The position numbers were made by a program, and so were the translations under genes. From the IMG/VR virus record IMGVR_UViG_3300021197_001769: DNA of 64,000 nt, one strand, 5' to 3'. Position 1 is the stretch's first letter. Each line of letters opens with the position of its first letter. Of this stretch, positions 4,757 through 30,298 are shown piece after piece. This DNA comes from a virus. A model generated the notes under the pieces. The model was given only the letters and a program-made list of their open reading frames with translations, did no database searches and was not told the DNA's origin.

Positions 4757-4780
4757 CATTTATAAGACGGAGAAGTACGA

Positions 4781-5473: not shown

Positions 5474-5478
5474 AAAAA

Positions 5479-5514: not shown

Positions 5515-5542
5515 ATCACTTAAAGGTAACTGTTAAGGAATC

Positions 5543-6313: not shown

Positions 6314-6315
6314 CT

Positions 6316-6869: not shown

Positions 6870-7075
6870 TTATTTTTAGCTTTCTTTTTTCCGGCTTTCA
6901 TATTAGCCATCCAATGAGCAAGTTGACCTTTTCGTCCTCCTTGCTTTGCTACTTTTCTTAAATTAGATACAGATGATTTAGTAGGTACTCCATGTCGTTT
7001 AGAGTCTCCTTTATCCTGAGGATTCTTTCCGTCTTTAAAATTTTCTTTGAATTGACTAAAGCTTAGCAGTTCCAT
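6866..7075 (-). CDS. Small basic protein, probable internal head protein
   Basis: N-terminal LSFSQFKE leader, then a K/R-rich body. Confidence 0.5.
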   Translation of the reverse strand: MELLSFSQFKENFKDGKNPQDKGDSKRHGVPTKSSVSNLRKVAKQGGRKGQLAHWMANMKAGKKKAKNK

Positions 7076-8316: not shown

Positions 8317-8336
8317 TTTAATACTCCTGATTATAT

Positions 8337-8344
8337 TATTTATT
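8337..8344 (-). promoter_or_regulatory. Late promoter variant AATAAATA
   Basis: Lies upstream of the AGGAG RBS and start of 7063..8316. Confidence 0.5.
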
Positions 8345-9717: not shown

Positions 9718-9724
9718 TACATTA

Positions 9725-9732
9725 TATTTATA
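9725..9732 (-). promoter_or_regulatory. T4-type late promoter TATAAATA
   Basis: Exact match immediately after the gp23 terminator, 7 nt upstream of the ATG. Confidence 0.7.
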
Positions 9733-9735
9733 CAC

Positions 9736-9764
9736 AAAAAAAGGGAGACCGAAGCCTCCCTTTT
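9736..9764 (-). terminator. Rho-independent terminator after gp23
   Basis: Minus strand reads GGGAGGC-TTCG-GTCTCCC-TTTTTTT; cUUCGg tetraloop typical of T4-like phages. Confidence 0.9.
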
Positions 9765-9783
9765 GCGTTTTTCGTATAAGCTA

Positions 9784-11268: not shown

Positions 11269-11327
11269 TACTCTATCTCCCTATTAAAAACGTTGATATA
11301 ATTTTTCTTAATCATTATTAATTTTTC

Positions 11328-13346
11328 TTATTTACTTATAGTTTTTGATAAGAACTGCGCGTATGCACTTACTGTAGAGTCGTTATGATCTTCTGTAATT
11401 ACTTCGTCAGTACCAATCACTTCTTCACTCAATGAGGTTAGAAGCTTTGAGTTTTCTTCGCTTTGATTAAAGTAAGCCTCTTTGAGGTCACTTAACTTGG
11501 CTTGGAACTCTTCAGTATCTTTAGCATCTACTGACTCAGCTAATTTTTCTAATCTAATTTTCTGTGTCTGTGTTAGCTCTGATGATACCTCTTCTACAAT
11601 TGAAGCCTTTTTATAATCAAGGACTTCTTTTTGTAAATTTTCTGCAAGAGTCTGAGACTCTTCTACTTGTTCTTTGAAAGAATCTATTTGTTCAGTTAAC
11701 TCATCAACTACTGAGATATCATCTTCAGGGATATCGATATAGTTTTCTGCAAATAGTTTTCTCATTCCTGAGATAAAGTTTTCAGCTACTTCAGTTCTAA
11801 GAGAGTACTTAATTTCTAATGCATTCTCTTCTAACCATTCTTTAACTGCATAATCAACATACTCGTTAATCTTATCGCTAATAGCAGCTTTCTCTTCATT
11901 AAGTTTCTCTTCGTAGTCAGCTTGAATCTTCTCAACTACTAGATCTACTTTTTCATTTACAGCTGTTTCAAATACTACAGCAGCTTTACGTTTAAAATCT
12001 TCATCTAATTCTGCTTCTAAATCAGTTTCAGTTTCTTCTGCTGCCATTTTATTAACAATTGGATCACTTGCTTGATCATGAGCACCTTTATTAGCATCTG
12101 CTTTTACTGAAGCTTTTGCCATCTTTGTAGGTCCTGCAGGATTTGCAATAGTTGGTGTGTCATGAGGATCGTTTGCTTGATTATGTGGACCAGCGCCTAC
12201 ATCACCACCTTTTGTTTCTGCTTCACCTTTAGCTGATTTTTTATCTTGATCAGGTAAATTTTTCATATTAGCATCAGTCTGAATAGTAGTATCTTGACCT
12301 TTAGCATCACCAACTTTTTGCATTGGTTCACCTGCTGGTAAAGCTTCTTCTACTTCTTCTACTTCTTCAGTAGTTGCTTTTTCAGCTTCATCTTCGATAG
12401 GATGCTCGATAACGTTACCGTCTTCATCTTTTTCGTGATGCTCTTCTTCTACAGCTTCTTTTTCTTCTGTTTCAGCATCATATTCAGCTTCTGATTCTTC
12501 AATTGATTCAGCTAATTGAGCTAACTCATCAGCGAAGATACTTTCTTCTTCTTCAGTTAGTTCTTTCATTAACTCATACCAGTTTTCTTCTTCTAAGTTT
12601 TTAAGCTCATTCCAATCCCAGTTGGCAGTACCTTCTTCGATTGTGATTTCACCAGCATGAAGAACATACATAGCATCTTCATAAGTTACTTCTTCTTTTT
12701 TCATTGCTTTATTGATAGCATTTCTTCTTTTCTTTAGATAATCATCTGACTCATCTTCGTCGCCATCGTTATCTACGTCACCATCTTCTTGACCAACCGG
12801 ATCCATCTTAGCTTTTTCATCAACAGTTTCAGCTTCTTCTTCTGATTCTGTCTCTTCGCTCATTCCTGGATCGTCACATTGGTTATGAGGTCCTTTGTTA
12901 GCTTCTGCTTCTGCAGATGCTTGAGAAGGTTTAGCGCTTATACCATCTATTGAATTAGTATCGCCTGCGTTATCGGTAGACTGATCATGTGGACCTTTAT
13001 CAGCCTCGACCGTTGCAGATGCATCACTAGCAATCTTCCCTTTATTCATATCACCTTCATCACCAGCATTTTCACCTGCTTGGTTATGGGGTCCTTTGTC
13101 AGCTGCTACTTCAGGAGACTGTTTACCGCTTCCTGGTTTAATTGTAGCCATATCAGCTGTCTTACCATCGCTAGTTAAATTCTTAGCGTTGTCGGCATTT
13201 TGATCAGCTTCTGCTATGTTATCTTCTTTCATAGGCTTTTTTTCCTGAGGGTTGGTAATCATATCCTTTTTGGTCATATGCTCACCACTCTTAGGTGCCT
13301 TCTCTTCAAGAAGATCTTCTATTACGTTTATCAAATCTTTAGACAT
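11328..13346 (-). CDS. gp22: Prohead core scaffold gp22 with long repetitive acidic N-terminal extension
   Basis: C-terminal EDFKRKAAVVFETAV...EWLEEN...ENFISGMRKLFAENYIDIP; lies between gp21 and gp23. Start set at ATG 13346 after AAGGAG. Confidence 0.9.
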   Translation of the reverse strand: MSKDLINVIEDLLEEKAPKSGEHMTKKDMITNPQEKKPMKEDNIAEADQNADNAKNLTSDGKTADMATIKPGSGKQSPEVAADKGPHNQAGENAGDEGDMNKGKIASDASATVEADKGPHDQSTDNAGDTNSIDGISAKPSQASAEAEANKGPHNQCDDPGMSEETESEEEAETVDEKAKMDPVGQEDGDVDNDGDEDESDDYLKKRRNAINKAMKKEEVTYEDAMYVLHAGEITIEEGTANWDWNELKNLEEENWYELMKELTEEEESIFADELAQLAESIEESEAEYDAETEEKEAVEEEHHEKDEDGNVIEHPIEDEAEKATTEEVEEVEEALPAGEPMQKVGDAKGQDTTIQTDANMKNLPDQDKKSAKGEAETKGGDVGAGPHNQANDPHDTPTIANPAGPTKMAKASVKADANKGAHDQASDPIVNKMAAEETETDLEAELDEDFKRKAAVVFETAVNEKVDLVVEKIQADYEEKLNEEKAAISDKINEYVDYAVKEWLEENALEIKYSLRTEVAENFISGMRKLFAENYIDIPEDDISVVDELTEQIDSFKEQVEESQTLAENLQKEVLDYKKASIVEEVSSELTQTQKIRLEKLAESVDAKDTEEFQAKLSDLKEAYFNQSEENSKLLTSLSEEVIGTDEVITEDHNDSTVSAYAQFLSKTISK

Positions 13347-13370
13347 GGGGTCCACTCCTTGTTGTCCTTT

Positions 13371-13378
13371 TATTTATT
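13371..13378 (-). promoter_or_regulatory. Late promoter variant AATAAATA upstream of gp22
   Basis: In the gp21-gp22 gap, upstream of the RBS. Confidence 0.55.
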
Positions 13379-13380
13379 AA

Positions 13381-14034
13381 TTAAAGATCTCTTAAGAACT
13401 TGTTAAACATATTAAGCTTAACTTCGTTTAATTCAGATTTCTTTGCTAGCATTAAATTTTTTCGCTCTATATCAAGATCTACTCTAGAGAATACCCCTGA
13501 CTCATATATCCATTCAGCTTGTTCATAAACACCTTCAACGAATGAAGATTGAGCTGAAGGATCAAATACGATATCGGCTGCAGTTGTTAGTACAAAATCA
13601 CTCTGTACTTCATTATGTCCCATTCTAGTTGGCTTAAGAGAACCTAAACCTCTAGAACTAACACCTACAGTCACTCCATCATCTAATAAATTTTCTACTA
13701 TCTTACCCATAGGTGTAGATAATACCTTTGCTTTTCCTTTATAATATATTCCATCTTGTTCTAAAGACTCAGTAAGAATAGCTGCTCTCTCTGGATTCAC
13801 AACAGGTTCAGCTGGATGGTTTAATTCACCTAGCGCTCTTTTTTTATCAATGTACTCTTCTTTGTACTTTGATACTGCTCCGTCCATTACTGATTGAGGG
13901 TATATTCTACCATTTCTGTTTTCTTTTTCAGCTTGTAAAAAAGGACCTGATATGAATAGTTTTTTATTGCTACCTTTACCTTCAGATATTACTTTCACGT
14001 TTTCAAATAATGTTGGTTCTGCTATAAGTTTCAT
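13381..14034 (-). CDS. gp21: Prohead protease gp21
   Basis: NRNGRIYP, ALGELNHP, TPMGKI, GVSSRGLGSL, DIVFDPSA. Confidence 0.97.
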   Translation of the reverse strand: MKLIAEPTLFENVKVISEGKGSNKKLFISGPFLQAEKENRNGRIYPQSVMDGAVSKYKEEYIDKKRALGELNHPAEPVVNPERAAILTESLEQDGIYYKGKAKVLSTPMGKIVENLLDDGVTVGVSSRGLGSLKPTRMGHNEVQSDFVLTTAADIVFDPSAQSSFVEGVYEQAEWIYESGVFSRVDLDIERKNLMLAKKSELNEVKLNMFNKFLRDL

Positions 14035-14048
14035 TGTTCTATCCTATC

Positions 14049-14393
14049 TTAATTAGCTACTATAAAGCCTCTTAATTCAATTATTGCATTAGGGCTAGTA
14101 CCTACTACAGTAAGAGATCCACCTCCTGCTGATCCAGTAAAAGGTAAACCTCCAAATTGAGATAGTAACCAGTTACCAGTTTCGAATACTTTACCGTCTA
14201 ATGTAACATCATTAGGTCCCATATTAATAACTGTCTCGATTCTATTAGGTTGGAATCTTTTAGTTTCACCAGTTTCTAATGTAAACAATAATGCATCTGA
14301 ATCGAATGCTGAAGCAGAATCAATATGCAATGTTACCCTTGCAGAGTTTTGATCTCTTGCTGTAATTCTTTTTGCTATTATAGTGTTAGCCAT
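14049..14393 (-). CDS. Hypothetical protein in head module, possibly virion
   Basis: Intact ORF with RBS; beta-rich; one DSD. Confidence 0.6.
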   Translation of the reverse strand: MANTIIAKRITARDQNSARVTLHIDSASAFDSDALLFTLETGETKRFQPNRIETVINMGPNDVTLDGKVFETGNWLLSQFGGLPFTGSAGGGSLTVVGTSPNAIIELRGFIVAN

Positions 14394-14402
14394 TTATATC
14401 TC

Positions 14403-15143
14403 CTAGTTTGATAAAGAAGCTAGTGATCTTGTACGACCTTTAATTCTTTTCTTTGTTATTTTAGCAATACGAGCTGCTTTCTTTTTCTTAGCAGCACCCA
14501 TAGCCTTTTTAGCTCTTTTAAGTTTAATTCCTAATCTTTTCATTTTAGCTTTTTGAGTACCGGTTTGAGGTAAGCATCTTCTACCTGCTAATCTCATACC
14601 TGGCATACACTTTTTCTTCTTAGTAATTGTGCCTTTAGATCTTTTAAAGATTACTCTAGCCATTTTTTCGTCAATTACAACTGTACCGTCTTCTTGCATT
14701 ACCTCTACATCATGAACTTCATAATCTTCTGCAAATAAAGCATCTTTAATTTTAAGATAATTTTCTATAGCATCATCATAGTAAGTTCTATCTTCGATAG
14801 CAAATTCTAAATCATACTCTTCCCCATCTTCCATAGGAACGAAGTCTAAATAAGTTTTAGGACATTGACACTCATCATCTGCTTCATGAGGATGACAACC
14901 ACAGTCATCATCATCTTCTTCATGTAAGTTAAGAGCAGCTTCTGCTTCGTCAAAGTCGTCAATGTCACCTTCTACTATTTCTTCATAGTCTAAGATAACA
15001 ACTTCTTCTTTAAACTCTTCAATTTGCTCAGGTGTAAAAATAGTCTCTTCTATTTCTACTCCTTGTCTTATCGAATCTAAGACGAGTTGTTTTTTCTCTT
15101 CGTAGATTCTACTCTTTAGGTTCTTCAGATTCATTTTTACCAT
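14403..15143 (-). CDS. Prohead core protein, gp68-like
   Basis: Acidic N-half and very basic C-half with C..G......C; gp68 position. Confidence 0.6.
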   Translation of the reverse strand: MVKMNLKNLKSRIYEEKKQLVLDSIRQGVEIEETIFTPEQIEEFKEEVVILDYEEIVEGDIDDFDEAEAALNLHEEDDDDCGCHPHEADDECQCPKTYLDFVPMEDGEEYDLEFAIEDRTYYDDAIENYLKIKDALFAEDYEVHDVEVMQEDGTVVIDEKMARVIFKRSKGTITKKKKCMPGMRLAGRRCLPQTGTQKAKMKRLGIKLKRAKKAMGAAKKKKAARIAKITKKRIKGRTRSLASLSN

Positions 15144-15282
15144 CTTCTATAAATTTAGAGGCCAACTCCTGCTTCATTTGCTGGAGATGTCCAATTACTT
15201 TAGTATCTATATGGGATTTTACATCTTTAACAAATGTATCTTGATCTCCCATATTCGTTGTAAAATCAAATTTATTTTCCAT
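15109..15282 (-). CDS. Small prohead core protein, gp67-like
   Basis: Size and position; KVIGHLQQMKQELASKF; start MENKF just after a late-promoter variant at 15285-15292. Confidence 0.5.
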   Translation of the reverse strand: MENKFDFTTNMGDQDTFVKDVKSHIDTKVIGHLQQMKQELASKFIEDGKNESEEPKE

Positions 15283-15290
15283 AATATTTA

Positions 15291-16289
15291 TTAACCCCAC
15301 ATTATAGAGTCTAGCTCTAATTGGTTATTGTTTTTAAGTTCATCTCTAAGAGATGTCTCTTCTTCGCGTCCTTCGTTATACAACGTTTGGCCATCTAATT
15401 GAACACCACCTGGTAGTTCAGTATTTTGATATTTCTTAAGATTAGCACCCCATTGCATTTTAGCTAAAGCAACAGCGTATGTTTTTAACCAACTGTCTTG
15501 ATATACTTGTCCGTATATTTCTGGGTCAGTTACTACATAACATTCAGCTAACATATAATGAGTCTTCTTACCACCATTAGCAGCAGTCTTCAATCTATTC
15601 ATATCTGTATCGAAATACAATCTATTTTTATGTTTATTAAATCTTATGGCAGGAGATGTATTCAATAAGAACTCTATATGTTCTACAAAAGTCTTTTGAA
15701 TATAATAAGAAGTTAATCCTCCTGCTCCCATACCACCATAAAAGAAATCAAAATTATTTAAAAAGTATTGGTACTCGTAATTATACATTCCCGCTTGACT
15801 AAAAGAGTCTACTTTAGCTATTCTAGTAACCGAAATTATATCATTAGGTACTTTAACTCCTATTTGACCAGCACTAGTAAGAATTATATTTTGATCTTCT
15901 AGTACTTGCTCTTCTAAAGTGAAGTATCTTCTAAATCCATCATGCGCAGAATCTGAATCAGTCTTTATATAAACTCTTTGACCTGTAACGTTATTCAGTT
16001 TTTTCATTACTCTAGAACCTAATCTATAGGTACTATATTTGTCAGAGTCAAAATCTTCTGCTCCTAAGTCTTGGTGTCTTCTATTATTTCTTTTAATAAA
16101 GTTACTATCAATCTTTATAACTCTATAAGTTCTTTCAGCGCCATCGTAATGGTACTCTTGATACAGCTGAACAGCATCATCAATACAATCTTCTAATTGT
16201 ACATCAGCAATCTCTACGTTAATGACAGGTGCACCCAGTCTACGTAAAATATAATCTGCTAGTTCTTGTTTACTGTTCGGTAACGGCAT
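15291..16289 (-). CDS. gp13: Neck protein gp13, relocated downstream of the portal gene
   Basis: ELADYILRRLGAPVINVEI...YHYDGAE...WLKTYAVALAKMQWGANLKKY...LPGGVQLDG. Confidence 0.93.
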   Translation of the reverse strand: MPLPNSKQELADYILRRLGAPVINVEIADVQLEDCIDDAVQLYQEYHYDGAERTYRVIKIDSNFIKRNNRRHQDLGAEDFDSDKYSTYRLGSRVMKKLNNVTGQRVYIKTDSDSAHDGFRRYFTLEEQVLEDQNIILTSAGQIGVKVPNDIISVTRIAKVDSFSQAGMYNYEYQYFLNNFDFFYGGMGAGGLTSYYIQKTFVEHIEFLLNTSPAIRFNKHKNRLYFDTDMNRLKTAANGGKKTHYMLAECYVVTDPEIYGQVYQDSWLKTYAVALAKMQWGANLKKYQNTELPGGVQLDGQTLYNEGREEETSLRDELKNNNQLELDSIMWG

Positions 16290-18497: not shown

Positions 18498-20696
18498 TTA
18501 CGCTCCTGCTACTTCTTCAAAACTAACGCCGGTTCTAACTGCGACGAAGTTAAGAGTTATAAAGTTAATTGAACGATTAGGTTTGATATAGATGTCAGCT
18601 ACGAATCTATTACCATCAATAACCGCCGGTGTATTATTTGAAGTATCACAAACTACTTTAAAGTCTTGGCATCCTCTTCTTGCTTTTATATCTTGTAAGA
18701 AAGGCTCTACTGCTGCTACAAAATTAGCTCTTGTAAAGTCGTCGTTGAATTCAAAGAGTTGAAACTTGGCTGCAGTTGCAATTGCTTTTTCTAATACAAT
18801 GAATAATCTTCTTACATTAATACGATCAAAAGCTGAAGGTTTACTTAGTGCAGTTTTATCACCAAATAGTAATGTACCTTGACCTCTTTGAGTAACCATA
18901 GGGTTGACTCTTTCTCTATACAGAACATCTCTGTCTGCTTGTTGAGGATTGAAAGATAATTTAACTACATTGGATACAAAACCTCTATTGAAACCTGCTG
19001 GTGACCACCAAGCATCATTAGTGAATTCTGACCTTGCGGTGATACCTGCTGTATCACCTGCCATCGCTGACCAGAAAAATTGATCATTATATCTGTCATA
19101 CATTCTCTTCCAAGCAGAATCGAACATTGCATACGATGTAGAGTTAAAGTCAGAAAAATAAGTAGTAACTTTAGCTGCAGTTGGATTAACTACTGCTGCA
19201 TCATAAGATGGTGAGCAAAATACTACACAATCTTTTCTTACATTTGCAATATTATCTATTGCATACTTTTGTACTACTTTTTGTTTTGTCGCGTTTGAAG
19301 AACCGCTACCGAAACTATTACCTAAAATTAATGAGATATCAATTTCTTCCGGATCTTTAAACTTATCAAGACCTGCTGTATAATCACCTGCATCAACATC
19401 ATCTCCAGAAGAACCACCATTAAGTGTGTATCTTCTTACACCTGTTAGAGACATGTTAGTAACAAATCTTACGAAGTCTTTTTCATTTGCTTTGTAAATA
19501 TCAATACCTATTGCAGTTACTTGTTCAGAATTTGATACTGCTGCGGTAGAATTACCGTTAGCTAGATCTTCTGTAAGTACGTAAATCCACTGTGATGTAT
19601 TATTAATTATATTTTTATAATAATTTTGACCACCATCAGCTGTTTTACCGTTACCTGCTTTAGATAAACCTTCAAATGTTTCAAGTACTTCATATGCAGA
19701 TCCTGTGATAGTAGTATCAGAGGTGTATACAATAACATGTACTTCATCTTGAACATCTGAGTCAAAGTTGTCTACAGACCATTGTGACCTACCTGGTCTC
19801 TTTTCAAACAATGTAGCTGCTTTAATTGCAGCTGAACCAGAGCCAACAATAGGTGTATTGTTAAAGTCTGAATCGTTCATGCCAGCATCAATAAGAGCTA
19901 CTCCTATACCGTTACCTCTATGACCAGGGAACCTAGCATAGACTGAACCATTGATAAGAGTACTTTCTTCAGCATTAAAGTCATCTAAATTATTAAGAAC
20001 TGCTGCTGTAGCAAAACCAGAACCTTGTTCAGCTTCTTGATAAGGAGTAAACGTTAGTCCTACTGTAGTTACAGCTGAAGGAGCAGTTGCAGCGGCTGGT
20101 GTTGTAAAAGTAATTGCTGTATCACCTGCCAATGCTGCGGCACCGTCGGAGTCTATCGCGGCGTCTGTGGCATTAGCTTCAGTATTGATAGCATTCTTTA
20201 AGATGTTTGCAACGTCACCAATGGATGAAATATCGTCGGAATCAGTAACTGTAAATTGAAATGCAGATGCGCTTGTAACTGCTCCAATGGTTACTGTCTG
20301 AGTTTTATGTCCCTCACCATCTGAATCGGGAAAAGTAAAAGCTGGGGTACCAGTAATACTAATTGTTGTCTTTCCTGACTCTAATGTAACGAACTCTGAT
20401 GCAGCGTTTCTAGCGCCATCAGTTAAAATTCTTACTATTTGAATTGCATTTGCGTATGATAAAAAGTTCGCAGCTGTGTACCAATCGCTTCTAGTACTTT
20501 CACCTGCTACTGTTGATACTTTTGGGTTACCAAACTTTGCTATTAACTGTTCTTCACTTGAAATAAGTGTAGGTTCTAGACAAGGTCCCCATTCAAAATT
20601 TCCAGCAAATGCACCTGTTGTAGTTGCTACAGCAGGTATAATATTGGTAAGGTCTTTTTCTTTTACCTGTACACCTGGACTAACTTGGAAGGCCAT
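18498..20696 (-). CDS. gp18: Tail sheath protein gp18
   Basis: SPGVQVKEKDLT, WWSPAGFNRG, FGDKT, FDRINVRRLF, FEFNDDFTR, KPNRSINFITLNF. Confidence 0.98.
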   Translation of the reverse strand: MAFQVSPGVQVKEKDLTNIIPAVATTTGAFAGNFEWGPCLEPTLISSEEQLIAKFGNPKVSTVAGESTRSDWYTAANFLSYANAIQIVRILTDGARNAASEFVTLESGKTTISITGTPAFTFPDSDGEGHKTQTVTIGAVTSASAFQFTVTDSDDISSIGDVANILKNAINTEANATDAAIDSDGAAALAGDTAITFTTPAAATAPSAVTTVGLTFTPYQEAEQGSGFATAAVLNNLDDFNAEESTLINGSVYARFPGHRGNGIGVALIDAGMNDSDFNNTPIVGSGSAAIKAATLFEKRPGRSQWSVDNFDSDVQDEVHVIVYTSDTTITGSAYEVLETFEGLSKAGNGKTADGGQNYYKNIINNTSQWIYVLTEDLANGNSTAAVSNSEQVTAIGIDIYKANEKDFVRFVTNMSLTGVRRYTLNGGSSGDDVDAGDYTAGLDKFKDPEEIDISLILGNSFGSGSSNATKQKVVQKYAIDNIANVRKDCVVFCSPSYDAAVVNPTAAKVTTYFSDFNSTSYAMFDSAWKRMYDRYNDQFFWSAMAGDTAGITARSEFTNDAWWSPAGFNRGFVSNVVKLSFNPQQADRDVLYRERVNPMVTQRGQGTLLFGDKTALSKPSAFDRINVRRLFIVLEKAIATAAKFQLFEFNDDFTRANFVAAVEPFLQDIKARRGCQDFKVVCDTSNNTPAVIDGNRFVADIYIKPNRSINFITLNFVAVRTGVSFEEVAGA

Positions 20697-20746: not shown

Positions 20747-22609
20747 CTACGAACCTGTCGGTAACGTATTAGTAAATCGAGGATTATCCCCGCCATGACT
20801 ATTTATTGTAAACGTTAATTTATATTCAGCTAAGCTGAACTTATCTTTGAATGCATATTCAATAACATTCGAATCTCTATACAATAATGTATTAAAGAAA
20901 CCTTTAGCTACAGGATGTGATTCTAGGTTGTAAGCTAGCACCCTTAATATATTTGCATCTGATGAACCTTTAGCAAATATCATAGTATTAGAAGACACTG
21001 TAGATCCGTCTCCGGATACAACTCTCCAAGTAACACTCATTTGAGCTTCTAATATCTGATCACTATCAGTTGAGAACGTAACTGTCGCTAAGTTTTCAGA
21101 ATCAGTTGGTACAGGAGTTGCAGGTGTTGAGCTTGAAGTAACTCCTATTAAAGTATTCAATTTAGCTATATCACCTTGCATAGTACCTATTAATGTACCC
21201 AATGCTTGAATAGCTATTTCATCTGAATCTCTATCAGATCTTAATAAATTTATTTTATTGGTAAGTACATTTATATCTGAATCGCTAGCGCCGCCTGATG
21301 AACCTACTTTACTAGTAAAATGTACAAAATCTGAATCCATATCTGATTTTATTCTACCAGCTAAAGACTGAATATATGTCATTCTAGTAGTTTCACTATC
21401 AATGTCAGCTCTTAATCCATCTACTTCATTTCTCAATGTAGCAGCTACTGCAAGATCAGAGTCACCAATACCTACAATACTTCTTATCTTATCTTGAAAT
21501 AAATTATGATCACTATCTAATCTAGCTCTTACTTGAGACTGCAATAAACTTAACTTAGTACCTTCAGAGTCTAATCTTAATCTCATTTGAGATTGAAGTA
21601 CTGATACTTTAGCTGCCTCTGAATCTAATCTTAATCTTATGTCAGATACTCTACTATCTAAAGCAGCTCTATCTGAATCTATTCTAGTATGAATTATATC
21701 TTGAGCAGTTTTTAATGCTTGTACTACTAATGAATCTGAATCTAGTCTACTGGTTAAATTAGTTTTTAACAACTGTACTTTAGTTGACTCAGAATCTAAT
21801 CTTACGTGAGCAGCATCAGCTCTTGCTTGTGCAGCTGCAGTCGAAGTACTTAGTGCTTGTAATGCTGCATCGTCTGAATCTAATCTTGATTTTACTTGAG
21901 TAGCTAACGCTTGTATAAAACTTGAATCTGAATCTAATCTAGCAGTAATAGTATTGACATTATTAGATAGATCAGCTACAACTTTTAAGTCAGAGTCGGA
22001 AGGTATTTCTAATACTCTTAAACCGTTCTCTCTTATTATTTCTATAACTTGATCACTATCAAATCCGGCAGAACCTACACCTAGTATACCAATATATTGA
22101 CCACCACTAATGTATATGCTTTTGTCTGTAAAGTCTTTACCATTAGGTAAGTTTTCACCCATAAAGTGTAACACACCAGACTGATAATCAAAAAACCATT
22201 CATCGTCATTACCAGAACCAGCAGCAAATAGCTGATTAGATATTCCAGCTGCATTATCACTGTCACCTGAATCGTGTAGATATACTTTTACTTGATATGT
22301 TGAACCAAATTCAGGTGGTATCCAATCTGTGACACCAGTAATCCAAGTTCTATTAGCACTCGCTGTACCATCTGCTACAGCTTCAACTAAATTGCTTGAA
22401 CTATATACTTCTACAACTCCTGTAGTACTTGCAGGTAAAGTAGCTGGTATAAGATTAGCTTGTACTAGAGTTTTATCACCTCTGTTTAATAATGGAGATG
22501 CAATAGATTCGTTAGTTGGACCTTTTAATGAATCAGAGTCAGTTCTAGCAACACCGAAACCTAATTTCTTAAAAAGAAAGTCTACCTTTGCTGTTAAACT
22601 AATTGCCAT
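20747..22609 (-). CDS. Virion fibre/whisker-like protein with RLDSD coiled-coil repeats
   Basis: N-terminal globular domain (WFFDYQSGVLHF); central helical repeats; about 14 DSD plus several DSE. Confidence 0.7.
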   Translation of the reverse strand: MAISLTAKVDFLFKKLGFGVARTDSDSLKGPTNESIASPLLNRGDKTLVQANLIPATLPASTTGVVEVYSSSNLVEAVADGTASANRTWITGVTDWIPPEFGSTYQVKVYLHDSGDSDNAAGISNQLFAAGSGNDDEWFFDYQSGVLHFMGENLPNGKDFTDKSIYISGGQYIGILGVGSAGFDSDQVIEIIRENGLRVLEIPSDSDLKVVADLSNNVNTITARLDSDSSFIQALATQVKSRLDSDDAALQALSTSTAAAQARADAAHVRLDSESTKVQLLKTNLTSRLDSDSLVVQALKTAQDIIHTRIDSDRAALDSRVSDIRLRLDSEAAKVSVLQSQMRLRLDSEGTKLSLLQSQVRARLDSDHNLFQDKIRSIVGIGDSDLAVAATLRNEVDGLRADIDSETTRMTYIQSLAGRIKSDMDSDFVHFTSKVGSSGGASDSDINVLTNKINLLRSDRDSDEIAIQALGTLIGTMQGDIAKLNTLIGVTSSSTPATPVPTDSENLATVTFSTDSDQILEAQMSVTWRVVSGDGSTVSSNTMIFAKGSSDANILRVLAYNLESHPVAKGFFNTLLYRDSNVIEYAFKDKFSLAEYKLTFTINSHGGDNPRFTNTLPTGS

Positions 22610-25600
22610 TAACTTATACTCAAACTAGTTACTGAATCACCTGATGCTAATCCTATTCTTAAAAGAATATTATTATTAGTAGCATTGGTTGCGTTTTCTG
22701 TACCGAGCGTGAAAGTAAAAGAGCCATTCAGCGCTCCTGTACCTACAATATCACCTCCAGTAGATGCACATCCATTAGAACCGTTTCCTCCTGATCCTGT
22801 GTTAGCGCCTGGTACACCAGCACCTGCATATTGACCTCCACAATCTAACCATCCATTTAATGAGGATGATGAATCAATTACTGTGCCTGGTGCTGCTATA
22901 AACATACCTTCTATACCAGAAGACGAAACAATATTAACTGTAAAGTTAGCCATTGCTGTTCTTCTAAACGCCATTGTAAAATATTGAGTTCCTGTATCAC
23001 CTGATCTGTTTGGTCCAGGAGGAACATATGTACTGTAGTTAGTAGTATCGTGTTTTAATACCCCTAATCTAATTGTAGCTTCTTTAGTGCCTTGAACTCC
23101 ACTATCTGAATCTTCTACGAATATATCTGTATTGTAATAATTATATGAACCACCTCTCAACGCAGGGGTATCAGTAGTAGCTGATTTTAAAGCTCCTGAT
23201 CTAACTCCGTTGTCGGTAAAACCTGAACCTAATCCACCAGCTACACTTATAGCAGTTTCGTTTATTCCAGATTGAGAAGCTGTATGCACGTTTATATTAG
23301 TTGTATTTTCTACATAAGAACTAGTACCGTTAGTATTACTTGCTCTCACTTTAATTCTATCTACTGTTCTAACTGATGAAGATGTAATAGCAACACTTAA
23401 GGTAGCTAATGTATAAGCAGAACTAACACCTGTATTAGCAATAGGTATGCCTCCGGATAACATTGTTGATGAACCATCTACATTAGCGTAAGTATAATTT
23501 GTATTAACTGTACCAGCAGAACTAGTACTTTCTTGATTAGTTCCAGAATCTATTTCAACAGGAGAGGATGTATCATTATAAGCTTGTCCTACAAAATTTG
23601 ATATTTGAATACCTGCAACGTTTATTGTAGGGCTTCCAGAATTAAAATAAGGCACTCCTGAAATGTATCTATAGGTTCCTGAATTATTAACTGATACAGT
23701 ACCTGTACTTGATACTGTCGGAGCCGCTGAAACTGTATCGTCTCTTAATATGTGAACAGTAGATGTTGAACCTGTCTGCGAATGTTTTATTAATTGTGCA
23801 TTAAGTCCTAAAGTATAACCTGATAAAGATCTAGCTATTTTAGCATCAAATGTCTGATAAAAATTGGATGGATATGTAGAAGAACTAATAGTATCATGAG
23901 CATCAGCTTGTTGAGTAACTTGAAGTGAACCAGCAGCTCCAGTTTCTCCTGATGTTGTAGTAAATGATATAGTACCGTCACTATCACCATTTCTTATACA
24001 TGTTACTTCACCTGCAGCTCCATTATAAGCATTATTAATTGTATTAGTATCTATAATTCCAGTAGTATATCTTCTTGCAGTTGTACTATTAAGAGATGTT
24101 CCTGCTGCTAATGTAGACATAGTACCTGTATTATCAGTGAAACCTGAAGCTAATTTAGGATTAGTACCGTGAGCTGAATCTGATAAAGTTAAAGTAAAAG
24201 TAGATAAGTTACTAGGAGCAGCTGGTACTGCGTTAATTGTAAATGTGACACTTTCTTTATCTGATTGAGCTACACTTCCAGGTGAACCAGAAGCAAATAA
24301 TTGAGAAGCATAACTACCAGTTGACTCTCCAGTATAGTCATGATCAATAGTAGCTCCTAATGAACCTGGAGATGATCCATCTTCAGTTAATGAATCTGAA
24401 TCTCCATCGGCCCAACTATAAGTTAAATTAGTTGCATTTTGTGATGTGTTAGTAGCTCTTACTAATGCTCTATTTGCACCGTTTAAGTCTACAAAGTCAT
24501 ATATGTCTCTACTATTATCTCCTGATCTATCAGAAACAGTTACTGCAGTTGCAGCATAGTTGACTCTTAAATCAGGTCTAACTGTAATTTCAAAAGGATC
24601 TGATTCGAAAGGAGATGAATCATGATTAGAAGTTATTTGTAATTTACCAGTAAAAGTAACTGTATGTCCATTAGCTTGATCTGAATCAGGTAATGCATAA
24701 GTATGAGAAACTGCACTAGCTCCTCTATCACCTGATGAACCTGTTCCTGCATTTACTGTTGTATTAGATGTACCGTCACCCCATACATAAACATATCTAC
24801 TACCAAATGTTGCAAAGTTACCAACACCTGAACCTGAATTGTTAGTTGCTTGTATAACATGACCTGATGTAGCTTCTTCATTTACACCATCACTATCATT
24901 TATACTTACAGATGGTGTATGTGTATCTAAAACATTAAAGAAATTATCTGAGTCAGCTGCAGGTATATCAGTTGGGTTAGCTGTAGTGTGTGAATTTAAT
25001 GTGAGAGAAATATTAAATCTTCTATCTTCTTCAACTACTGTATCAAATGTATAAGGTAATCTACTACCGCCGTTATTAATAGAACCACCAGGTAATCTAT
25101 CAGAATCTATAGCATGCATTAAATCGCTATCACCAAAATTAAAAACATAACCTGCGATTGCATTTGAAGTATTAGTAGTATTATTTTGTAAATAAATTGT
25201 ATCGCCATCATCCCATTGTGTAATAGGAGAACCACCAGACGATGCAGCATATATTGCGAATGAAACAGCTGGTGTAGCTGTAAAAACTGTTACGTAGTTA
25301 CTTCTTTCTTTAACTGAAAATGAACCAGCACCTTCTCCAGAAGAGTTTCTAGCTATTACTCTTACAGTAAAAGGAGAACCTACGTTTGAATTGTATGTAT
25401 GAGATGGTGTACTATCAGAACTGTCTGAATCTATGTTACCGTCACCCCAATGAATATCATATCTATTAGGGTTACCATCTGCACTTGTTGTTAATGTAGT
25501 AGTGAAACCAGCACCACCGATTAAGTTGTCACCAGTAAAATCTAAATTAGAAACAGCAGTATTTCTAATTACGTTTCTAGTAGCTTCATTTAATTTATCG

Positions 25601-26112
25601 ATAGCGTCAGTAACTGTTTCAGTTGTTTCTAATGCTATAGCACCAGTTTCACTTGATAAGGAACCATCTTGTAAGGGAGCACCGAGTGTGATTTGATTGC
25701 CTACTGTATTTTGTCCAGCATGCTCTTGAATCATATTAACGATTGCATCTGAGTCGTGACCAGCATTAGCGGCTAAGTTACTAATAGCAGCAGTATCTGA
25801 GTCTAACCTTGCAGTTAAATCAGTCTTAATTGCTTGTAATCTACTCTCATCAGAGTCTAGTCGAGATACTGCAGTTTCAGCTCTTCTTAAAAGAGTCTGG
25901 ACGCGTGTTGTCTCTGAGTCAAGATCTGATCTAAGAGCTGCAACGGCTGTGCCAGCATGCTCAAAGACCATATTCTTAACAACATCTGAGTCAGTAGTAG
26001 AGGATATAGTGTAAACACCTTCACCTTCGGAGTTTACAACAAACCCTACACCTACATTAGTACCTGCCTCTAGTCTAGTAACGAGAGGGATATCATCTGA
26101 ATCGTACGCCAT
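22609..26112 (-). CDS. Large virion structural/fibre protein with PKD-like domains
   Basis: Repeated WGDG/FGD...HTY PKD-type motifs; S/T/G/N-rich; N-terminal RLDSD coil; about 14 DSD. Confidence 0.75.
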   Translation of the reverse strand: MAYDSDDIPLVTRLEAGTNVGVGFVVNSEGEGVYTISSTTDSDVVKNMVFEHAGTAVAALRSDLDSETTRVQTLLRRAETAVSRLDSDESRLQAIKTDLTARLDSDTAAISNLAANAGHDSDAIVNMIQEHAGQNTVGNQITLGAPLQDGSLSSETGAIALETTETVTDAIDKLNEATRNVIRNTAVSNLDFTGDNLIGGAGFTTTLTTSADGNPNRYDIHWGDGNIDSDSSDSTPSHTYNSNVGSPFTVRVIARNSSGEGAGSFSVKERSNYVTVFTATPAVSFAIYAASSGGSPITQWDDGDTIYLQNNTTNTSNAIAGYVFNFGDSDLMHAIDSDRLPGGSINNGGSRLPYTFDTVVEEDRRFNISLTLNSHTTANPTDIPAADSDNFFNVLDTHTPSVSINDSDGVNEEATSGHVIQATNNSGSGVGNFATFGSRYVYVWGDGTSNTTVNAGTGSSGDRGASAVSHTYALPDSDQANGHTVTFTGKLQITSNHDSSPFESDPFEITVRPDLRVNYAATAVTVSDRSGDNSRDIYDFVDLNGANRALVRATNTSQNATNLTYSWADGDSDSLTEDGSSPGSLGATIDHDYTGESTGSYASQLFASGSPGSVAQSDKESVTFTINAVPAAPSNLSTFTLTLSDSAHGTNPKLASGFTDNTGTMSTLAAGTSLNSTTARRYTTGIIDTNTINNAYNGAAGEVTCIRNGDSDGTISFTTTSGETGAAGSLQVTQQADAHDTISSSTYPSNFYQTFDAKIARSLSGYTLGLNAQLIKHSQTGSTSTVHILRDDTVSAAPTVSSTGTVSVNNSGTYRYISGVPYFNSGSPTINVAGIQISNFVGQAYNDTSSPVEIDSGTNQESTSSAGTVNTNYTYANVDGSSTMLSGGIPIANTGVSSAYTLATLSVAITSSSVRTVDRIKVRASNTNGTSSYVENTTNINVHTASQSGINETAISVAGGLGSGFTDNGVRSGALKSATTDTPALRGGSYNYYNTDIFVEDSDSGVQGTKEATIRLGVLKHDTTNYSTYVPPGPNRSGDTGTQYFTMAFRRTAMANFTVNIVSSSGIEGMFIAAPGTVIDSSSSLNGWLDCGGQYAGAGVPGANTGSGGNGSNGCASTGGDIVGTGALNGSFTFTLGTENATNATNNNILLRIGLASGDSVTSLSIS

Positions 26113-26138: not shown

Positions 26139-26729
26139 CTAGTTGCCTGAGTTATCGTCTGTATCTAGTACATATCCTCCGAATACAACACTATTAGAAG
26201 TATTTCTAATTTCTAATTTGTGTGCGTCTGTAAAAGCATTACCATCAAAGTTAAATGCTTGACCTGCTGTAATAGTAATACCACCTGGGAATGTGTATCC
26301 ACTATTCAATGCTGTCTTAACAGCTGAAACTGCTACTGTATCAGAGTCTAATCTAGCTATGATTTCTGTTATTTTTGGATTCAATTGAGCCATAATGAAA
26401 TCAGAGTCAGCTACTTGATTAAGTTTTGATATAATCAAACCGTGCTCTGAGTCTCTATCTGCTCTTAAGTTATTAACAGCTGCTGATAAGTTACTTAACT
26501 TAACTGTATCAGAATCTAATCTAGCAATAAGTCCTGGATTAGTACCTGTGTCAATAATAACAGCCCATTTAGTAGCATCTGATCCAGGGGTTACACCTGA
26601 GAAGCCACCTGATACTGCTGAGTATGCAATACCTTCGTGATGTACTGTATCTAATTTTTGGTATGTTGTACCGGCGTTATAAGCGCCTTTAAAAACGAGT
26701 CTTACTCGTCCTAATATCTGAGTTGCCAT
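26139..26729 (-). CDS. Short fibre-associated virion protein
   Basis: N-terminal FKGAYNAGTTY..LDTV...W repeat seen in phage fibres; RLDSD coil; C-terminal LEIRN module. Confidence 0.65.
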   Translation of the reverse strand: MATQILGRVRLVFKGAYNAGTTYQKLDTVHHEGIAYSAVSGGFSGVTPGSDATKWAVIIDTGTNPGLIARLDSDTVKLSNLSAAVNNLRADRDSEHGLIISKLNQVADSDFIMAQLNPKITEIIARLDSDTVAVSAVKTALNSGYTFPGGITITAGQAFNFDGNAFTDAHKLEIRNTSNSVVFGGYVLDTDDNSGN

Positions 26730-26805
26730 TTTCCTTTACCCCTTTTGTTCTGGTTGGAAGCCCTGCCACTTTCGTGGTTCTAGCTCAGTAGCATTAATGC
26801 TGTTT

Positions 26806-26813
26806 TATTTATA
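26806..26813 (-). promoter_or_regulatory. T4-type late promoter TATAAATA
   Basis: Exact intergenic match about 75 nt upstream of 26729. Confidence 0.7.
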
Positions 26814-26823
26814 ATTATGCACT

Positions 26824-27081
26824 CTAGTCGTCATCAGCTAAATGTGCAGCATAAGCAGTTTTAATTTCATCTGTCCAAACACCGTTTGCTATATTTTGCA
26901 CTTCTGTGCTTTCATTAGATAAGCCATCTGCACTTATGTTTGGTGAAACTATGTGTCTTGAAAAAACTCGACTTATTTCTGTACCATCTCTTTTAATGAC
27001 TGTTGCAGTTCTAACTTGTATAAATTTATACGGCCCTACCACTTCAATTTTATCTTGTATTGTTTCTTCTGTTAATGCCAC
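26824..27081 (-). CDS. Small protein following the DDYEEG-type fibre tip, probable fibre assembly partner
   Basis: QDKIEVV...QVRTATVIKRDGTEISR.F.RH...W; from recollection, this type is found next to DDYEEG fibres in marine phages. Confidence 0.6.
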   Translation of the reverse strand: MALTEETIQDKIEVVGPYKFIQVRTATVIKRDGTEISRVFSRHIVSPNISADGLSNESTEVQNIANGVWTDEIKTAYAAHLADDD

Positions 27082-27099
27082 TTTCTACTCCTATAATTA

Positions 27100-28638
27100 T
27101 TAGAACGTCATGTATGTTATACCTATGGTAAACCTATCATTGGTTGCCATATGAGAGTTGTTAAGAGTTCCTGCCGATGTATTATTCTCAGATGACCTAA
27201 ATGATCCAACAGATGCATCAGTTGAAACATAAAAATTAACAAAATTACCAGAATTATGATCCGGACCTTGTGCACCAACTCCATCAAAAGCAACTGAACC
27301 AACAGACCTATCACTTAAATCTGCGCCATTACCTGTTGCAAATGGTAAACTTATATCTATAACTCCGTTTGGACTACTTTCACCAGTTATATGTAATTGA
27401 CCTTGCAAGTGAACCATTCTACCAATTTTTACATATGACAATTTTGTAGCACTATCTCCAAGAGTATAGCTACCACTTGTCCTACCTGTGACTGTAGGGG
27501 TATATATACCTTCTTCATAATCATCAAGCAGTTCACCGGTCATACCAGTAGCATCACTTGTGGCACTAAAATCTATACCATGACCATTTGCTACTATAAC
27601 GTTGCCATCAGTTAGAGTTAATCCATTGCCTACAGTTACTGTACCATCAACTTCTAATCCTGTACCATTAATTAATTGAAGTGTGTCGCTATTAAATCTT
27701 GCACTAATATTATTTGAGCCAGCTTTCTTATGAGTTATTTCAATAATACCATCTTCAGTTCCGTCACTAGCGTCTTGTATTTTTCCTGTAATTTTTGCAT
27801 ATACTATTTCTTGGTTAGCATCATTTTCACCTTTGAACTTTATTTGACCTAAGTAATCTGCGTCGGCTACACTAGAACTATTACGTTTAAGTGTAATCAC
27901 TGGACCTGCATTATTAGAATCTTCAGTTGTAGTAACTAATATACTATCATCTGTAGTTGTGTTATTAACAGTTAAAGTTTGGAATGTGTGATCTGAATCT
28001 ATACCACCTAAACCAGCTATGTTAGCTGTATTAGTATTTGTAGCTGCTTTTAATGATTGTATTATTATACTATCACTGTCTAGATCTGCTCTCGTCTTAG
28101 TTGCTAATGATTGAATAGCTGCGCTGTCTGAATCTAGCCTGTTTGTAATTTCACTTATTTTTGATATCTTTATCGAATCTGAATCTCTATCAGCTCTAAG
28201 AGATAATATAGCACCACCAACTGAGTCTAATGTATCGTTACCAGTTAAGAATAATATCTGTCCATCAGAGTCAATAGTCAAAGTACCTGAATTTGCTACA
28301 TCATCATTTGTGTTTAATAATATTTGACCATCACTGTCGACTACTAAAGTACCTATTTGTCTATCAGCATCATCAGAATCTAATCTGTTTATTAAACCGT
28401 CTACTTTGTTTTGTAAATTTGCGACTTTAGTTAAGTCACTATCTTCTATTTCGGCAACAGATGCGAAGGCAAGTGAACCAGAGACAACCTTTAAAATTTG
28501 ATTGTCAGAACCAATAGTTGAGGGAATACTAACGTTACCTACAGTAAGTCCTTTAACGGTTGTACCGCCTGAAGTAACGAAAAGGTCAGAGTCTCCTACA
28601 CGAAGACCGTTTTTTATCATAAAATTTTTTTGTGCCAT
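27100..28638 (-). CDS. Tail fibre protein, DSD-rich N-half with DDYEEG-type C-terminal domain
   Basis: MAQKNFMIKNGL start; GIDFSAT...LLDDYEEGIYTP...YVKIGRMVH...ISLPF tip domain. Confidence 0.75.
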   Translation of the reverse strand: MAQKNFMIKNGLRVGDSDLFVTSGGTTVKGLTVGNVSIPSTIGSDNQILKVVSGSLAFASVAEIEDSDLTKVANLQNKVDGLINRLDSDDADRQIGTLVVDSDGQILLNTNDDVANSGTLTIDSDGQILFLTGNDTLDSVGGAILSLRADRDSDSIKISKISEITNRLDSDSAAIQSLATKTRADLDSDSIIIQSLKAATNTNTANIAGLGGIDSDHTFQTLTVNNTTTDDSILVTTTEDSNNAGPVITLKRNSSSVADADYLGQIKFKGENDANQEIVYAKITGKIQDASDGTEDGIIEITHKKAGSNNISARFNSDTLQLINGTGLEVDGTVTVGNGLTLTDGNVIVANGHGIDFSATSDATGMTGELLDDYEEGIYTPTVTGRTSGSYTLGDSATKLSYVKIGRMVHLQGQLHITGESSPNGVIDISLPFATGNGADLSDRSVGSVAFDGVGAQGPDHNSGNFVNFYVSTDASVGSFRSSENNTSAGTLNNSHMATNDRFTIGITYMTF

Positions 28639-28669
28639 CTCGGTTCACTATCCCCAGAGTCATATTATA

Positions 28670-28691
28670 GAGGAGAGATTTCTCTCTCCTC
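28670..28691 (-). promoter_or_regulatory. Perfect 9-bp leader hairpin with GAAA loop
   Basis: Minus strand reads GAGGAGAGA-GAAA-TCTCTCCTC, just downstream of a late promoter; no U-tail. Confidence 0.55.
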
Positions 28692-28702
28692 GTATATTAT
28701 TA

Positions 28703-28710
28703 TATTTATA
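28703..28710 (-). promoter_or_regulatory. T4-type late promoter TATAAATA
   Basis: Exact match overlapping the stop codon of 28706..30298. Confidence 0.7.
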
Positions 28711-30298
28711 ACGTTATTTGCTCTATGATTTTATAAGTAGTAGATTGAGCAGACGCAGAAGTGATTCTTAGTCTTACATTTCCACCATTTATATCAGCAC
28801 TTATAGCAGTAACCGGAATTGATCCAGTGTATACTATACCGTACTCAACAAAAGCGACGTTAGTACCATCATGAGTAAGAAGTACTTCTGATACTTGATT
28901 CTCACCTGATACTGTGTTAGCAGCAGTTACTAGTACTTTCATTCCTTTAAAGGAGTTTGAAGCACGTGTAGTAACTGTTGTTGCATCAGTACTAGTAGTA
29001 GTTATTGTAGCTGGAGCCACAACCGCTATACCACCAGTATTAGCTGCATTAACACCTAACGTAATATCATTATTAAATTTAGATTTCAGAGAATCTTCTG
29101 AATCTTGATCGCCTCTTAACGCATCAACTACTCTCTGTAATGCAGATATCTTTACAGTATCTGAGTCGAGTCTAGCTAAGGCATCATTTACTCTTGTATT
29201 AACAAGTTGTACTTGCGTCTGGTCAGAGTCTAATCTGGCCTTTTGTAAGTTACTTGATAACACCAAAGAAGAGATAACAGCTTGATCAGAATCTAATCTT
29301 GAGATAAATTCTTTTCTAAGAGCTGCGATTCTAGGATCTTCAGAGTCTAATCTTGCAATAATATCACTTTGCTTACCTTGCAATAATTGTAACTTAGTCG
29401 AATCAGAATCACGATCTGTTCTTAATGTAGTAATAGCGTTACCAACAGAGTCAATTGTATCTGATCCTGTTAATACCATCAATTCACCTTCTGAGTCAAC
29501 AGCAAAGACACCGTTCTCAGTAAAGTGTAATCTACTATTAATAAAGTCAGAGTCAATCATATTTGAGATTGAGTCAGAATCTATTATCTTCGCTCTTGTA
29601 TTCAAATCATCTAAAGCAATTTGAATAGCTTGTATTTTAGTACTATCAGAGTCTAAGTCTGCTCTTAATGCTGCTGTGTCAGCTGACGTACCAGCACCTA
29701 AAGCTTGAATCCTTGCGCTATCTGAATCAAGTCTTTGTCTTGTTTGCGAAGCAAACGTTTGAAAGGCTGAATGATCAGAATCTAATCTAGGATAAACTTG
29801 TGATCTAATAGTCTGTTGAACAATAGAATCAGAATCTAATCTGCCGATAAGAGCAGCAACTTTTTGGTCTAATTGAAATGTTAACAGGTCTGAGTCAGCA
29901 AGGTTTAATAAACCAGCTGCTATTTTAGCTTGAAATAAGTCATGATCAGAATCCATTCTTGTATGGATAACATCTACTTGACCTCGAATAGTCTGAACTC
30001 TAGTTGAGTCAGAGTCTACTCTCGCAGCTAATTGGTCTTGCTTAGTCTTTAAAGCTTGTATAACGGTACTATCAGATTCATTATCTGCTATAATCTGGTT
30101 AACGTTACTTGCTGTAAGATATCCTGCGTTATTAGTTAAAAGCGAATTATTATCACCAGCTTTGATAACAGCGTTATCGCCAATGGTAATTGTACTTCCG
30201 GTTTTTAACTTTAAACTAGTATCTCCTACAAGACTAAAATGCAGGTCGGAATCACCGACCAATAATCCTTGACGGATTCTAAAGTCTCTATTTGCCAT
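28706..30298 (-). CDS. Fibre protein with RLDSD coiled-coil repeats
   Basis: MANRDFRIRQGL start; about 14 DSD; C-terminal KVLV...QVSEVLLTHDGT....EYG domain. Confidence 0.75.
   Translation of the reverse strand: MANRDFRIRQGLLVGDSDLHFSLVGDTSLKLKTGSTITIGDNAVIKAGDNNSLLTNNAGYLTASNVNQIIADNESDSTVIQALKTKQDQLAARVDSDSTRVQTIRGQVDVIHTRMDSDHDLFQAKIAAGLLNLADSDLLTFQLDQKVAALIGRLDSDSIVQQTIRSQVYPRLDSDHSAFQTFASQTRQRLDSDSARIQALGAGTSADTAALRADLDSDSTKIQAIQIALDDLNTRAKIIDSDSISNMIDSDFINSRLHFTENGVFAVDSEGELMVLTGSDTIDSVGNAITTLRTDRDSDSTKLQLLQGKQSDIIARLDSEDPRIAALRKEFISRLDSDQAVISSLVLSSNLQKARLDSDQTQVQLVNTRVNDALARLDSDTVKISALQRVVDALRGDQDSEDSLKSKFNNDITLGVNAANTGGIAVVAPATITTTSTDATTVTTRASNSFKGMKVLVTAANTVSGENQVSEVLLTHDGTNVAFVEYGIVYTGSIPVTAISADINGGNVRLRITSASAQSTTYKIIEQITL

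Follow-up and report, generated by a model that had tools for sequence, protein, structure and literature searches.

Periodic polar core layers are known from bacterial adhesin fibres, and single ion sites from phage needles. In the stalks of trimeric autotransporter adhesins (TAAs), polar layers with Asn at position d and Thr at position e bind anions (Hartmann et al. 2009, as cited in PMC13580157), and R(g)-x-D(b) is an interchain salt-bridge motif of trimeric coiled coils (PMC13580157). In the tail needle gp26 of phage P22 (PDB 2POH/3C9I), a Ca ion is bound within a polar core layer of the NxxQD type, as outlined in PMC13580157. In staphylococci, the stalks of the Ser-Asp repeat adhesins are O-GlcNAcylated by SdgB, for which DSD is the minimal peptide (PMC8561734, PMC3794999). 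In the host-recognition clusters of pelagimyophages, hypervariable fibre genes lie beside radical SAM and sugar-related cassettes (PMC7029224). Here we analysed a fibre-like protein of a marine T4-like myovirus, the stalk of which may be a segmented, probably trimeric coiled coil with periodic acidic core layers neutralised by cations; we assign this reading a probability of about 0.45.

The window, i.e. the whole 64,000-nt stretch of DNA analysed (IMG/VR record IMGVR_UViG_3300021197_001769), was recognised by ORF calls and Pfam/PHROG matches as T4-like myovirus DNA from the structural region. Reading along the minus strand, the large terminase gene (30805–32640) is followed by five fibre-like ORFs (140, 530, 512, 196 and 1167 aa), the 620-aa ORF studied here (20747–22609, minus strand) and the genes for tail sheath, tail tube and portal. 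The position of the 620-aa ORF directly upstream of the sheath gene is kept in relatives. Judged by the sheath protein, the nearest cultured phages are the Pelagibacter phages HTVC008M and Mosig and the Methylophilales phage Melnitz (46–48% identity), with HTVC008M (46%) as the closest cultured relative; no HTVC008M match to the 620-aa protein was found in a search of the phage collection. Like the pelagimyophages, the present phage is a marine T4-like phage of streamlined heterotrophs, with a hypervariable fibre cluster adjoining radical SAM and sugar-related cassettes.

The gene preceding the 620-aa ORF (22609–26112, minus strand) encodes a 1167-aa partner protein, in which an RLDSD helical segment (residues 60–125) is followed by beta domains. 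Its TAA stop codon overlaps the ATG of the 620-aa gene (TAATG), and both the pair and the overlap are kept in the related genomes L003, L006 and L007; the gene preceding a 620-aa-type gene always codes for a protein of 1100–1700 aa, with overlapping stop and start codons. The helical DSD module of the 620-aa stalk, in the form h-D-S-[DE]-x-x-x-h-Q-x-h (h, hydrophobic), is found not only in this partner but also in the three fibre-like ORFs of 196, 512 and 530 aa (26139–30298, minus strand).

The 620-aa protein was divided into an N-terminal anchor domain, a helical stalk and a C-terminal knob, with the ORF, synteny and a match to PHROG 9417 (unknown function; residues 1–189) marking it as a structural protein. 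Residues 1–180 (22070–22609, minus strand) are predicted by AlphaFold2 (AF2) to form a flexible arm (residues 1–43) and a beta-rich domain (pLDDT 64). In the AF2 monomer built on an alignment of 19 sequences, the stalk, which carries the DS[DE] array described below (residues 184–486; 21152–22060, minus strand), contains three predicted helices: 1) a continuous helix of residues 208–378 (21476–21988), with pLDDT 77–91 over residues 230–370, which holds motifs 226 to 365 and has motif 205–207 at its N-terminus; 2) a segment of residues 385–438 (21296–21457), beginning at a DSD after a Gly-Ile-Gly break (residues 379–384, ahead of DSD 383); and 3) a segment of residues 444–486 (21152–21280), beginning at a DSD after a Gly/Ser-rich break (residues 439–443, ahead of DSD 443), all on the minus strand. 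A Pro/Thr linker then leads to the C-terminal knob (residues 506–620; 20750–21094, minus strand), modelled as an alpha/beta domain over residues 508–615 (pLDDT 75–84). A fully helical stalk would measure about 41 nm and space its motifs at 2.7 or 3.1 nm; the net charge of the stalk is -9 per chain.

Searches for known relatives of this protein gave little. The Pfam scan returned no family, a profile search of PDB sequences returned only generic coiled coils (E above 0.02), and no clear PDB match was obtained for the fold of the N-terminal domain (Foldseek E of at least 0.06; VIA Z of at most 4.2). The whole-model fold search gave nothing significant, with weak matches of about 110–120 residues to sheath and flagellin chains; these, which involve the outer domains of both kinds of protein, we take to be matches of the C-terminal knob. 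The N-terminal domain recurs at 64–69% identity in hundreds of marine phage proteins with differing distal parts, some of which continue as a domain of the T7 tail fibre type (Phage_T7_tail) or as the Pfam domain PTL_trimer, and it is also present at 36–38% identity in phiCbK-like Caulobacter phages. The 620-aa protein is a modular fibre, in which the anchor is conserved and the stalk, between anchor and tip, can be exchanged. In its T4-like phage origin, N-terminal anchor, segmented coiled coil with short breaks and small C-terminal domain it resembles T4 fibritin (wac). However, there is no sequence or Pfam match to fibritin, including the C-terminal foldon, the C-terminal domain is an alpha/beta fold of about 115 residues instead of the 27-residue foldon, and the gene is part of a fibre cluster flanked by the terminase and sheath genes. 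We know of no description of a DSD motif in fibritin.

A preliminary description of this DNA, made from the letters alone, had noted RLDSD repeats at 21200–22060, mostly 18 and sometimes 21 residues apart; this region encodes residues 184–470 of the 620-aa protein on the minus strand. The motif and its regular spacing were confirmed. DS[DE] begins at residues 184, 205, 226, 244, 272, 290, 311, 329, 347, 365, 383, 404, 425, 443 and 461, giving successive gaps of 21, 21, 18, 28, 18, 21, 18, 18, 18, 18, 21, 21, 18 and 18 residues. The whole protein contains 19 DS[DE] tripeptides, whereas 20,000 shuffles gave 0.93 on average (Poisson P ~9e-19), and all 13 gaps between residues 205 and 461 are 18, 21 or 28, a result in which every gap falls in the coiled-coil-compatible set and which was obtained in none of 64,605 random placements. 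The description of the motif itself needed revision: Arg precedes it (position -2) in only 8 of 14 stalk motifs (seven RLDS[DE] and one RIDSD; residues 224–367, 21509–21940, minus strand), and the invariant element is D-S-[DE] instead of RLDSD.

Such an array could in principle lack a function and stem from composition or a recent tandem duplication alone, and the protein is indeed rich in Asp (9.7%) and Ser (12.3%). This explanation, which we consider hardly credible, is already contradicted by the data, as i) there are 19 motifs where 0.93 would be expected, ii) no DNA tandem repeat was found in the array region, and the repeat units are only 17% identical outside the motif (44% at the DNA level), iii) a second clade and orthologues as distant as 40% identity retain both motif and spacing, and iv) the Ser codons vary. 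The Ser codons of the DS[DE] motifs are a mixture of TCA, TCT and AGT, the Asp codons are varied too, and at 7 of 19 aligned sites, of which site 117 is a well-aligned one, some orthologues use TCN and others AGY for the Ser. The mixed codons and the switching therefore indicate selection on the protein. A repeat or signal at the DNA level was likewise ruled out by the lack of a tandem repeat and by the varied Ser and Asp codons. The pattern is real, old and maintained at the protein level.

Full-length orthologues (40–58% identity) keep the motifs, with gaps almost only of 18 and 21; a gap of 21 is as common in them as one of 18. In a sister clade (P0019–P0023 and P0027) the gaps are mainly 14 and 21. 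When the stalk alone was searched against 1.84 billion cluster representatives, just 52 clusters matched at E ≤0.001, and the family is therefore small. In 48 of these clusters the gaps peak at 14, 18, 21, 25, 28, 32, 35 and 39, i.e. the series 7n and 7n+4. The orthologues also contain a second type of 18-residue unit, DSD-[YFH]-x-[LY]-F-Q-x-K-I, which ends in G-x-G; this unit probably ends in a break, so that the orthologue stalks would be more segmented than that of the 620-aa protein. A weakly matching protein with ten perfect 21-residue repeats carrying DTD (P0177) represents a different repeat and was excluded as evidence.

The periodicity of the stalk is that expected of a coiled coil with a and d positions. 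The Fourier spectrum of hydrophobicity over residues 208–486 has its peak at 2.28 residues, within the 7/3 to 18/8 harmonic, which was exceeded in 0 of 300 shuffles, and the motif phases are coherent (R = 0.87) at 3.556 residues per turn, equivalent to 256 residues over 72 turns. With units aligned on DS[DE], the core positions fall at -1, +2, +6, +9, +13 and +16/17 relative to the motif. The strongly hydrophobic ones are -1, +6, +9, +13 and +16 (and +20) in the 21-residue units, and -1, +6, +9, +13 and +17 in the 18-residue units of the RLDS[DE] type; a core position is thus required between -1 and +6, and the second acid, at +2, is the sole residue able to fill it. Helical wheels gave the same placement for the wider family (281 unique units free of Gly and Pro, with gaps of 14, 18, 21, 25 or 28): the hydrophobic moment is consistent across the five classes, the second acid lies 2–34 degrees off the centre of the hydrophobic face, and the first Asp (+120 to +152 degrees) and the Ser (-105 to -137 degrees) are exposed. 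On these models, h-D-S-[DE] occupies a-b-c-d in every gap class throughout the family, with the second acid (d) in the core. Family-wide, the consensus reads [R/D](g)-[L/A](a)-D(b)-S(c)-[D/E](d)-[L/S/T](e)-x-x-[I/V/L](a)-[Q/A](b)-x-L(d)-[R/K](e), with Asp at b in 100% of units, Asp (86%) or Glu (14%) at d, and Arg at g in 24%.

The proposal that the motif is displayed in register along a helical coiled-coil stalk was therefore borne out by the predicted helices, by the a/d-type hydrophobic periodicity and by the single register modelled for the whole family, in which the Ser and Asp residues have consistent positions. The suggestion of recurring polar core layers fits the second acid, at d; the Ser and the first Asp are exposed.

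From the motif, its spacing and conservation, the predicted helix and the register, we infer the following structure, in which the trimer, the bound cation and the setting of register are the inferred parts. The stalk would be an alpha-helical coiled coil built of segments and, like other phage fibres, probably a parallel trimer; along it, the module [R/D]-h-D-S-[D/E]-x-x-x-h-Q-x-L returns after a whole number of helical turns: 18 residues would make five turns (a heptad and a hendecad, with one stutter), 21 would make six and 28 would make eight. The second acid, at d, would place one ring of carboxylates in the core per module, giving a polar core layer every 2.7–3.1 nm, and in the RLDSD units, half of the total, the acidic layer would be bracketed by the interchain salt-bridge motif R(g)-x-D(b). 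Since three carboxylates would be buried in each layer, a counter-ion would be needed, and by analogy with the N@d and P22 NxxQD layers a cation from sea water (Ca or Mg) may neutralise them. The acidic layers may help to set the oligomeric state and the register of a long repetitive fibre, and the irregular order of gaps of 18 and 21 would penalise out-of-register association. The outward-facing Ser and first Asp belong to a D-S-D tag found on the tail proteins of the whole lineage (see below), the role of which a coiled coil alone does not explain.

Such a stalk would resemble those of the TAAs in that polar residues recur at d along an extended fibre, the layer is flanked by Arg (g) and Asp (b) and frequently followed by Ser or Thr at e, and heptads are mixed with longer periodicities. 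RLDS[DE][ST] matches the TAA pattern R(g)-x-D/N@d residue for residue, except that Asp or Glu replaces Asn at d; unlike the Asn layers, the phage layers are thus expected to hold a cation rather than an anion. The phage stalk also differs in the invariant Ser at c, and the fibre has no autotransporter domains (no Pfam match). In the P22 gp26 fibre, a trimeric coiled-coil tail fibre such as the present one probably is, the cation is in a polar core layer on the axis, where the putative cation of the present stalk would sit. However, gp26 has N at a, Q at d and D at e, whereas the present stalk has L/A, D/E and L/S/T at these positions, and the single site of gp26 contrasts with an array of about 14; no sequence relation between gp26 and the 620-aa stalk was detectable.

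Several observations on the stalk are not accounted for by core layers. Positions b and c of a coiled coil normally vary freely. A core layer explains the second acid only, and the first Asp and the Ser are invariant at the exposed positions b and c. Arg is present at g in just about one quarter of the units family-wide. Four of the stalk motifs lie at helix starts in the AF2 model and not inside a continuous helix.

The last of these observations suggests another function, in which D-S-D would mainly be an N-cap signal that starts a helix, so that the array would mark flexible joints between short coiled-coil segments, as in T4 fibritin, rather than sites. Asp and Ser are favoured N-cap residues, the predicted helices begin at or just after DSD 184, 205, 383 and 443, the last two of these follow Gly-rich breaks, and many of the 18-residue units of the orthologues end in G-x-G just ahead of the next DSD. 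However, motifs 226 to 365 lie within a single helix, predicted with high confidence to run unbroken for 171 residues, and have neither Gly nor Pro around them, capping needs no invariant tripeptide, and the DSD sites in beta-turns and loops would be left unexplained; we consider this function improbable as the main role of the motif.

D-S-D is not confined to the stalk. Thirteen ORFs of the window encode tail, neck or fibre proteins, and in them DSD occurs 94 times against 4.5 expected (about 20-fold enrichment), and DSE 11 times against 2.0 expected. Other tripeptides of similar form are rare in the same ORFs (DTD 2, DGD 4, DAD 2 and ESD 3); as no other middle residue is enriched, a plain metal-binding DxD is not indicated. 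Almost no DSD occurs in about 45 non-structural ORFs or in the capsid, tube and portal core. Its non-helical sites are in turns (h-h-D-S-D-G-x-h-h), loops and disordered tails, including the appended tail of gp15, places that have no three-fold axis. Because the tripeptide is about 20-fold enriched in the loops, turns and tails of other proteins, the stalk is one setting of DSD only, and an explanation by coiled coils alone is incomplete. The preliminary description treated the motif as a property of the stalk, and its interpretation as a whole is partly supported.

Relatives with few DSD motifs show what replaces them. In the N-terminal domain of the 620-aa protein, DSD is found at residues 24 and 116, where DSD-poor homologues have DTN and DA[ASG]. 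In the 1167-aa partner, the DSD-poor orthologue from L006 (56% identity) has TTT, DSQ, SSD, NDT, SGD, STND or SDS in place of DSD, and no DSD was found in about 6,000 residues of L006. Most DSD sites of the partner are common to the two DSD-rich clades, with a few gained, lost or shifted. HTVC008M shows no DSD enrichment either, unlike the lineage of the window. No description of a DSD motif in a phage protein turned up in literature searches.

The invariant, exposed Asp(b) and Ser(c), the preference for Ser alone and the independence of fold point to a tripeptide that is read as a linear element. An obvious candidate for the reader is a modifying enzyme; a precedent is SdgB, for which DSD is the minimal peptide to be O-GlcNAcylated (PMC8561734). 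D-S-D may then be a linear sequon in tail, neck and fibre proteins, with a phage or host enzyme attaching a sugar, a phosphate or another group to the Ser hydroxyl, probably ahead of assembly; the stalk would serve as a scaffold for about 14 rings, each of three modified serines, with a fixed register that reflects only where the tripeptide fits in a coiled coil. This possibility, which we rate as rather unlikely, agrees with the strictness of the tripeptide in helices, turns, loops and tails, with its restriction to tail-side proteins, and with the exposure of the Ser and its retention through switches of codon family. The replacement of DSD at orthologous sites (56–69% identity) also agrees with it, as the substituting residues are rich in Ser and Thr and apparently lie in loops. 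The likeness to the SdgB substrates lies in the same tripeptide on a stalk-like region of a surface protein, the Ser of which is the acceptor in the adhesins. However, the adhesins have contiguous SD dipeptides in disordered regions, whereas the phage has isolated tripeptides 14–28 residues apart in folded helices as well as loops. The register itself also tells against modification as the sole function, since no acid would be buried in an e-f-g register, and the motif nevertheless sits at b-c-d everywhere.

A search for an enzyme that would modify D-S-D found no writer. No SdgB-like enzyme was found in the window, nor was any glycosyltransferase Pfam family among the ORFs scanned in these 64 kb of a genome of about 180 kb. 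A neighbouring island of radical SAM and oxygenase genes at 33047–54040 was considered as a partner of DSD and rejected: a related island is present at the same place in the second DSD-rich clade (G002), but DSD-rich L007 has none at the syntenic place, and the island therefore does not track the motif. A RIO-like kinase is without a match in DSD-rich G002. A 189-aa 'glycosyltransferase-like' ORF, which lacks Pfam support, has a homologue in G002 and none in 19 incomplete DSD-poor fragments; we list it as a lead only.

In its most specific form, this line of argument would make D-S-D the fold-independent sequon of a new O-linked modification system that acts only in this uncultured lineage and only on its tail, neck and fibre proteins, with about 42 modified serines arranged on the stalk as three-fold rings every 2.7–3.1 nm and the flanking acid doubling as a core layer. 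We regard this form as slightly more doubtful than the general one. A role of the second acid in core layers and a modification of the Ser are not mutually exclusive, and Ser modification is a live rival to acidic core layers as the function of the motif, in that it would account for the distribution of DSD over the virion.

If our preferred reading of a trimeric coiled coil with acidic core layers is correct, the stalk would be a phage counterpart (D@d) of the N@d layer, with an invariant acid at every fifth or sixth turn throughout a family, and would offer a compact model for metal-dependent folding and control of register in long repetitive fibres. The tripeptide marks nearly all the tail-side proteins of an uncultured lineage and not those of its closest cultured relative; the stalk is therefore its most regular and most easily expressed carrier for deciding between a cation site and a modification site. 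Whichever it is, the answer would inform how the host-recognition apparatus of abundant marine phages is stabilised or disguised.

The Asp-Ser-Asp (DSD) motifs of the sheath protein (window 18498–20696), five in all, are confined to residues 124–314, upstream of the C-terminal sheath domains matched by Pfam (residues 434–718), and the tube protein contains none. The gp15 protein (window 57789–58781) carries seven DSD motifs in its final 80 residues, and this end lies outside the part covered by the Pfam gp15 model.

The structural module also harbors an enzyme island without DSD motifs (window 33047–54040). It encodes eight radical SAM proteins (in four of these, a SPASM-like Cys domain sits on the N-terminal side of the core), as well as an Fe-S assembly protein, a QueC-like protein, a RIO-like kinase, TauD, two cupins with weak likeness to Asp/Asn-hydroxylases and a fatty-acid-desaturase-like protein. 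A related 13-kb island occupies the same position in the IMG/VR record G002, and none was found at the matching position in L007, another DSD-rich relative.

In the close relative L003, two DSD-free ORFs of 379 and 382 aa (L003:3166–5463) replace the 512-aa fibre of the window; the 379-aa ORF weakly matches the ALK/LTK glycine-rich domain, and the two together look like a tip module that was imported and did not gain the motif. The fibre cluster is much enlarged in the DSD-rich relative G004 (L094/L095), where the partner-fibre pair is preceded by eight consecutive fibre-like ORFs (553–734 aa; 236–15780), each with 3–9 DSD motifs. In P0177, a weakly related protein of 981 aa, residues 315–530 comprise ten perfect 21-residue tandem repeats (DIDSNDTDISALQxATGVLRG), which look like a recently expanded, heptad-based stalk with DTD in place of DSD.

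A 99-aa ORF on the plus strand (window 22329–22628), which overlaps the beginning of the 620-aa fibre-like gene in antisense orientation, is most likely spurious. The N-terminal anchor domain of the 620-aa protein (window 22070–22609) shares 36–38% identity with proteins of phiCbK-like siphoviruses (Caulobacter/Brevundimonas phages), annotated as hypothetical or 'putative tail'. This similarity suggests that the domain serves in fibre attachment and has been exchanged widely.
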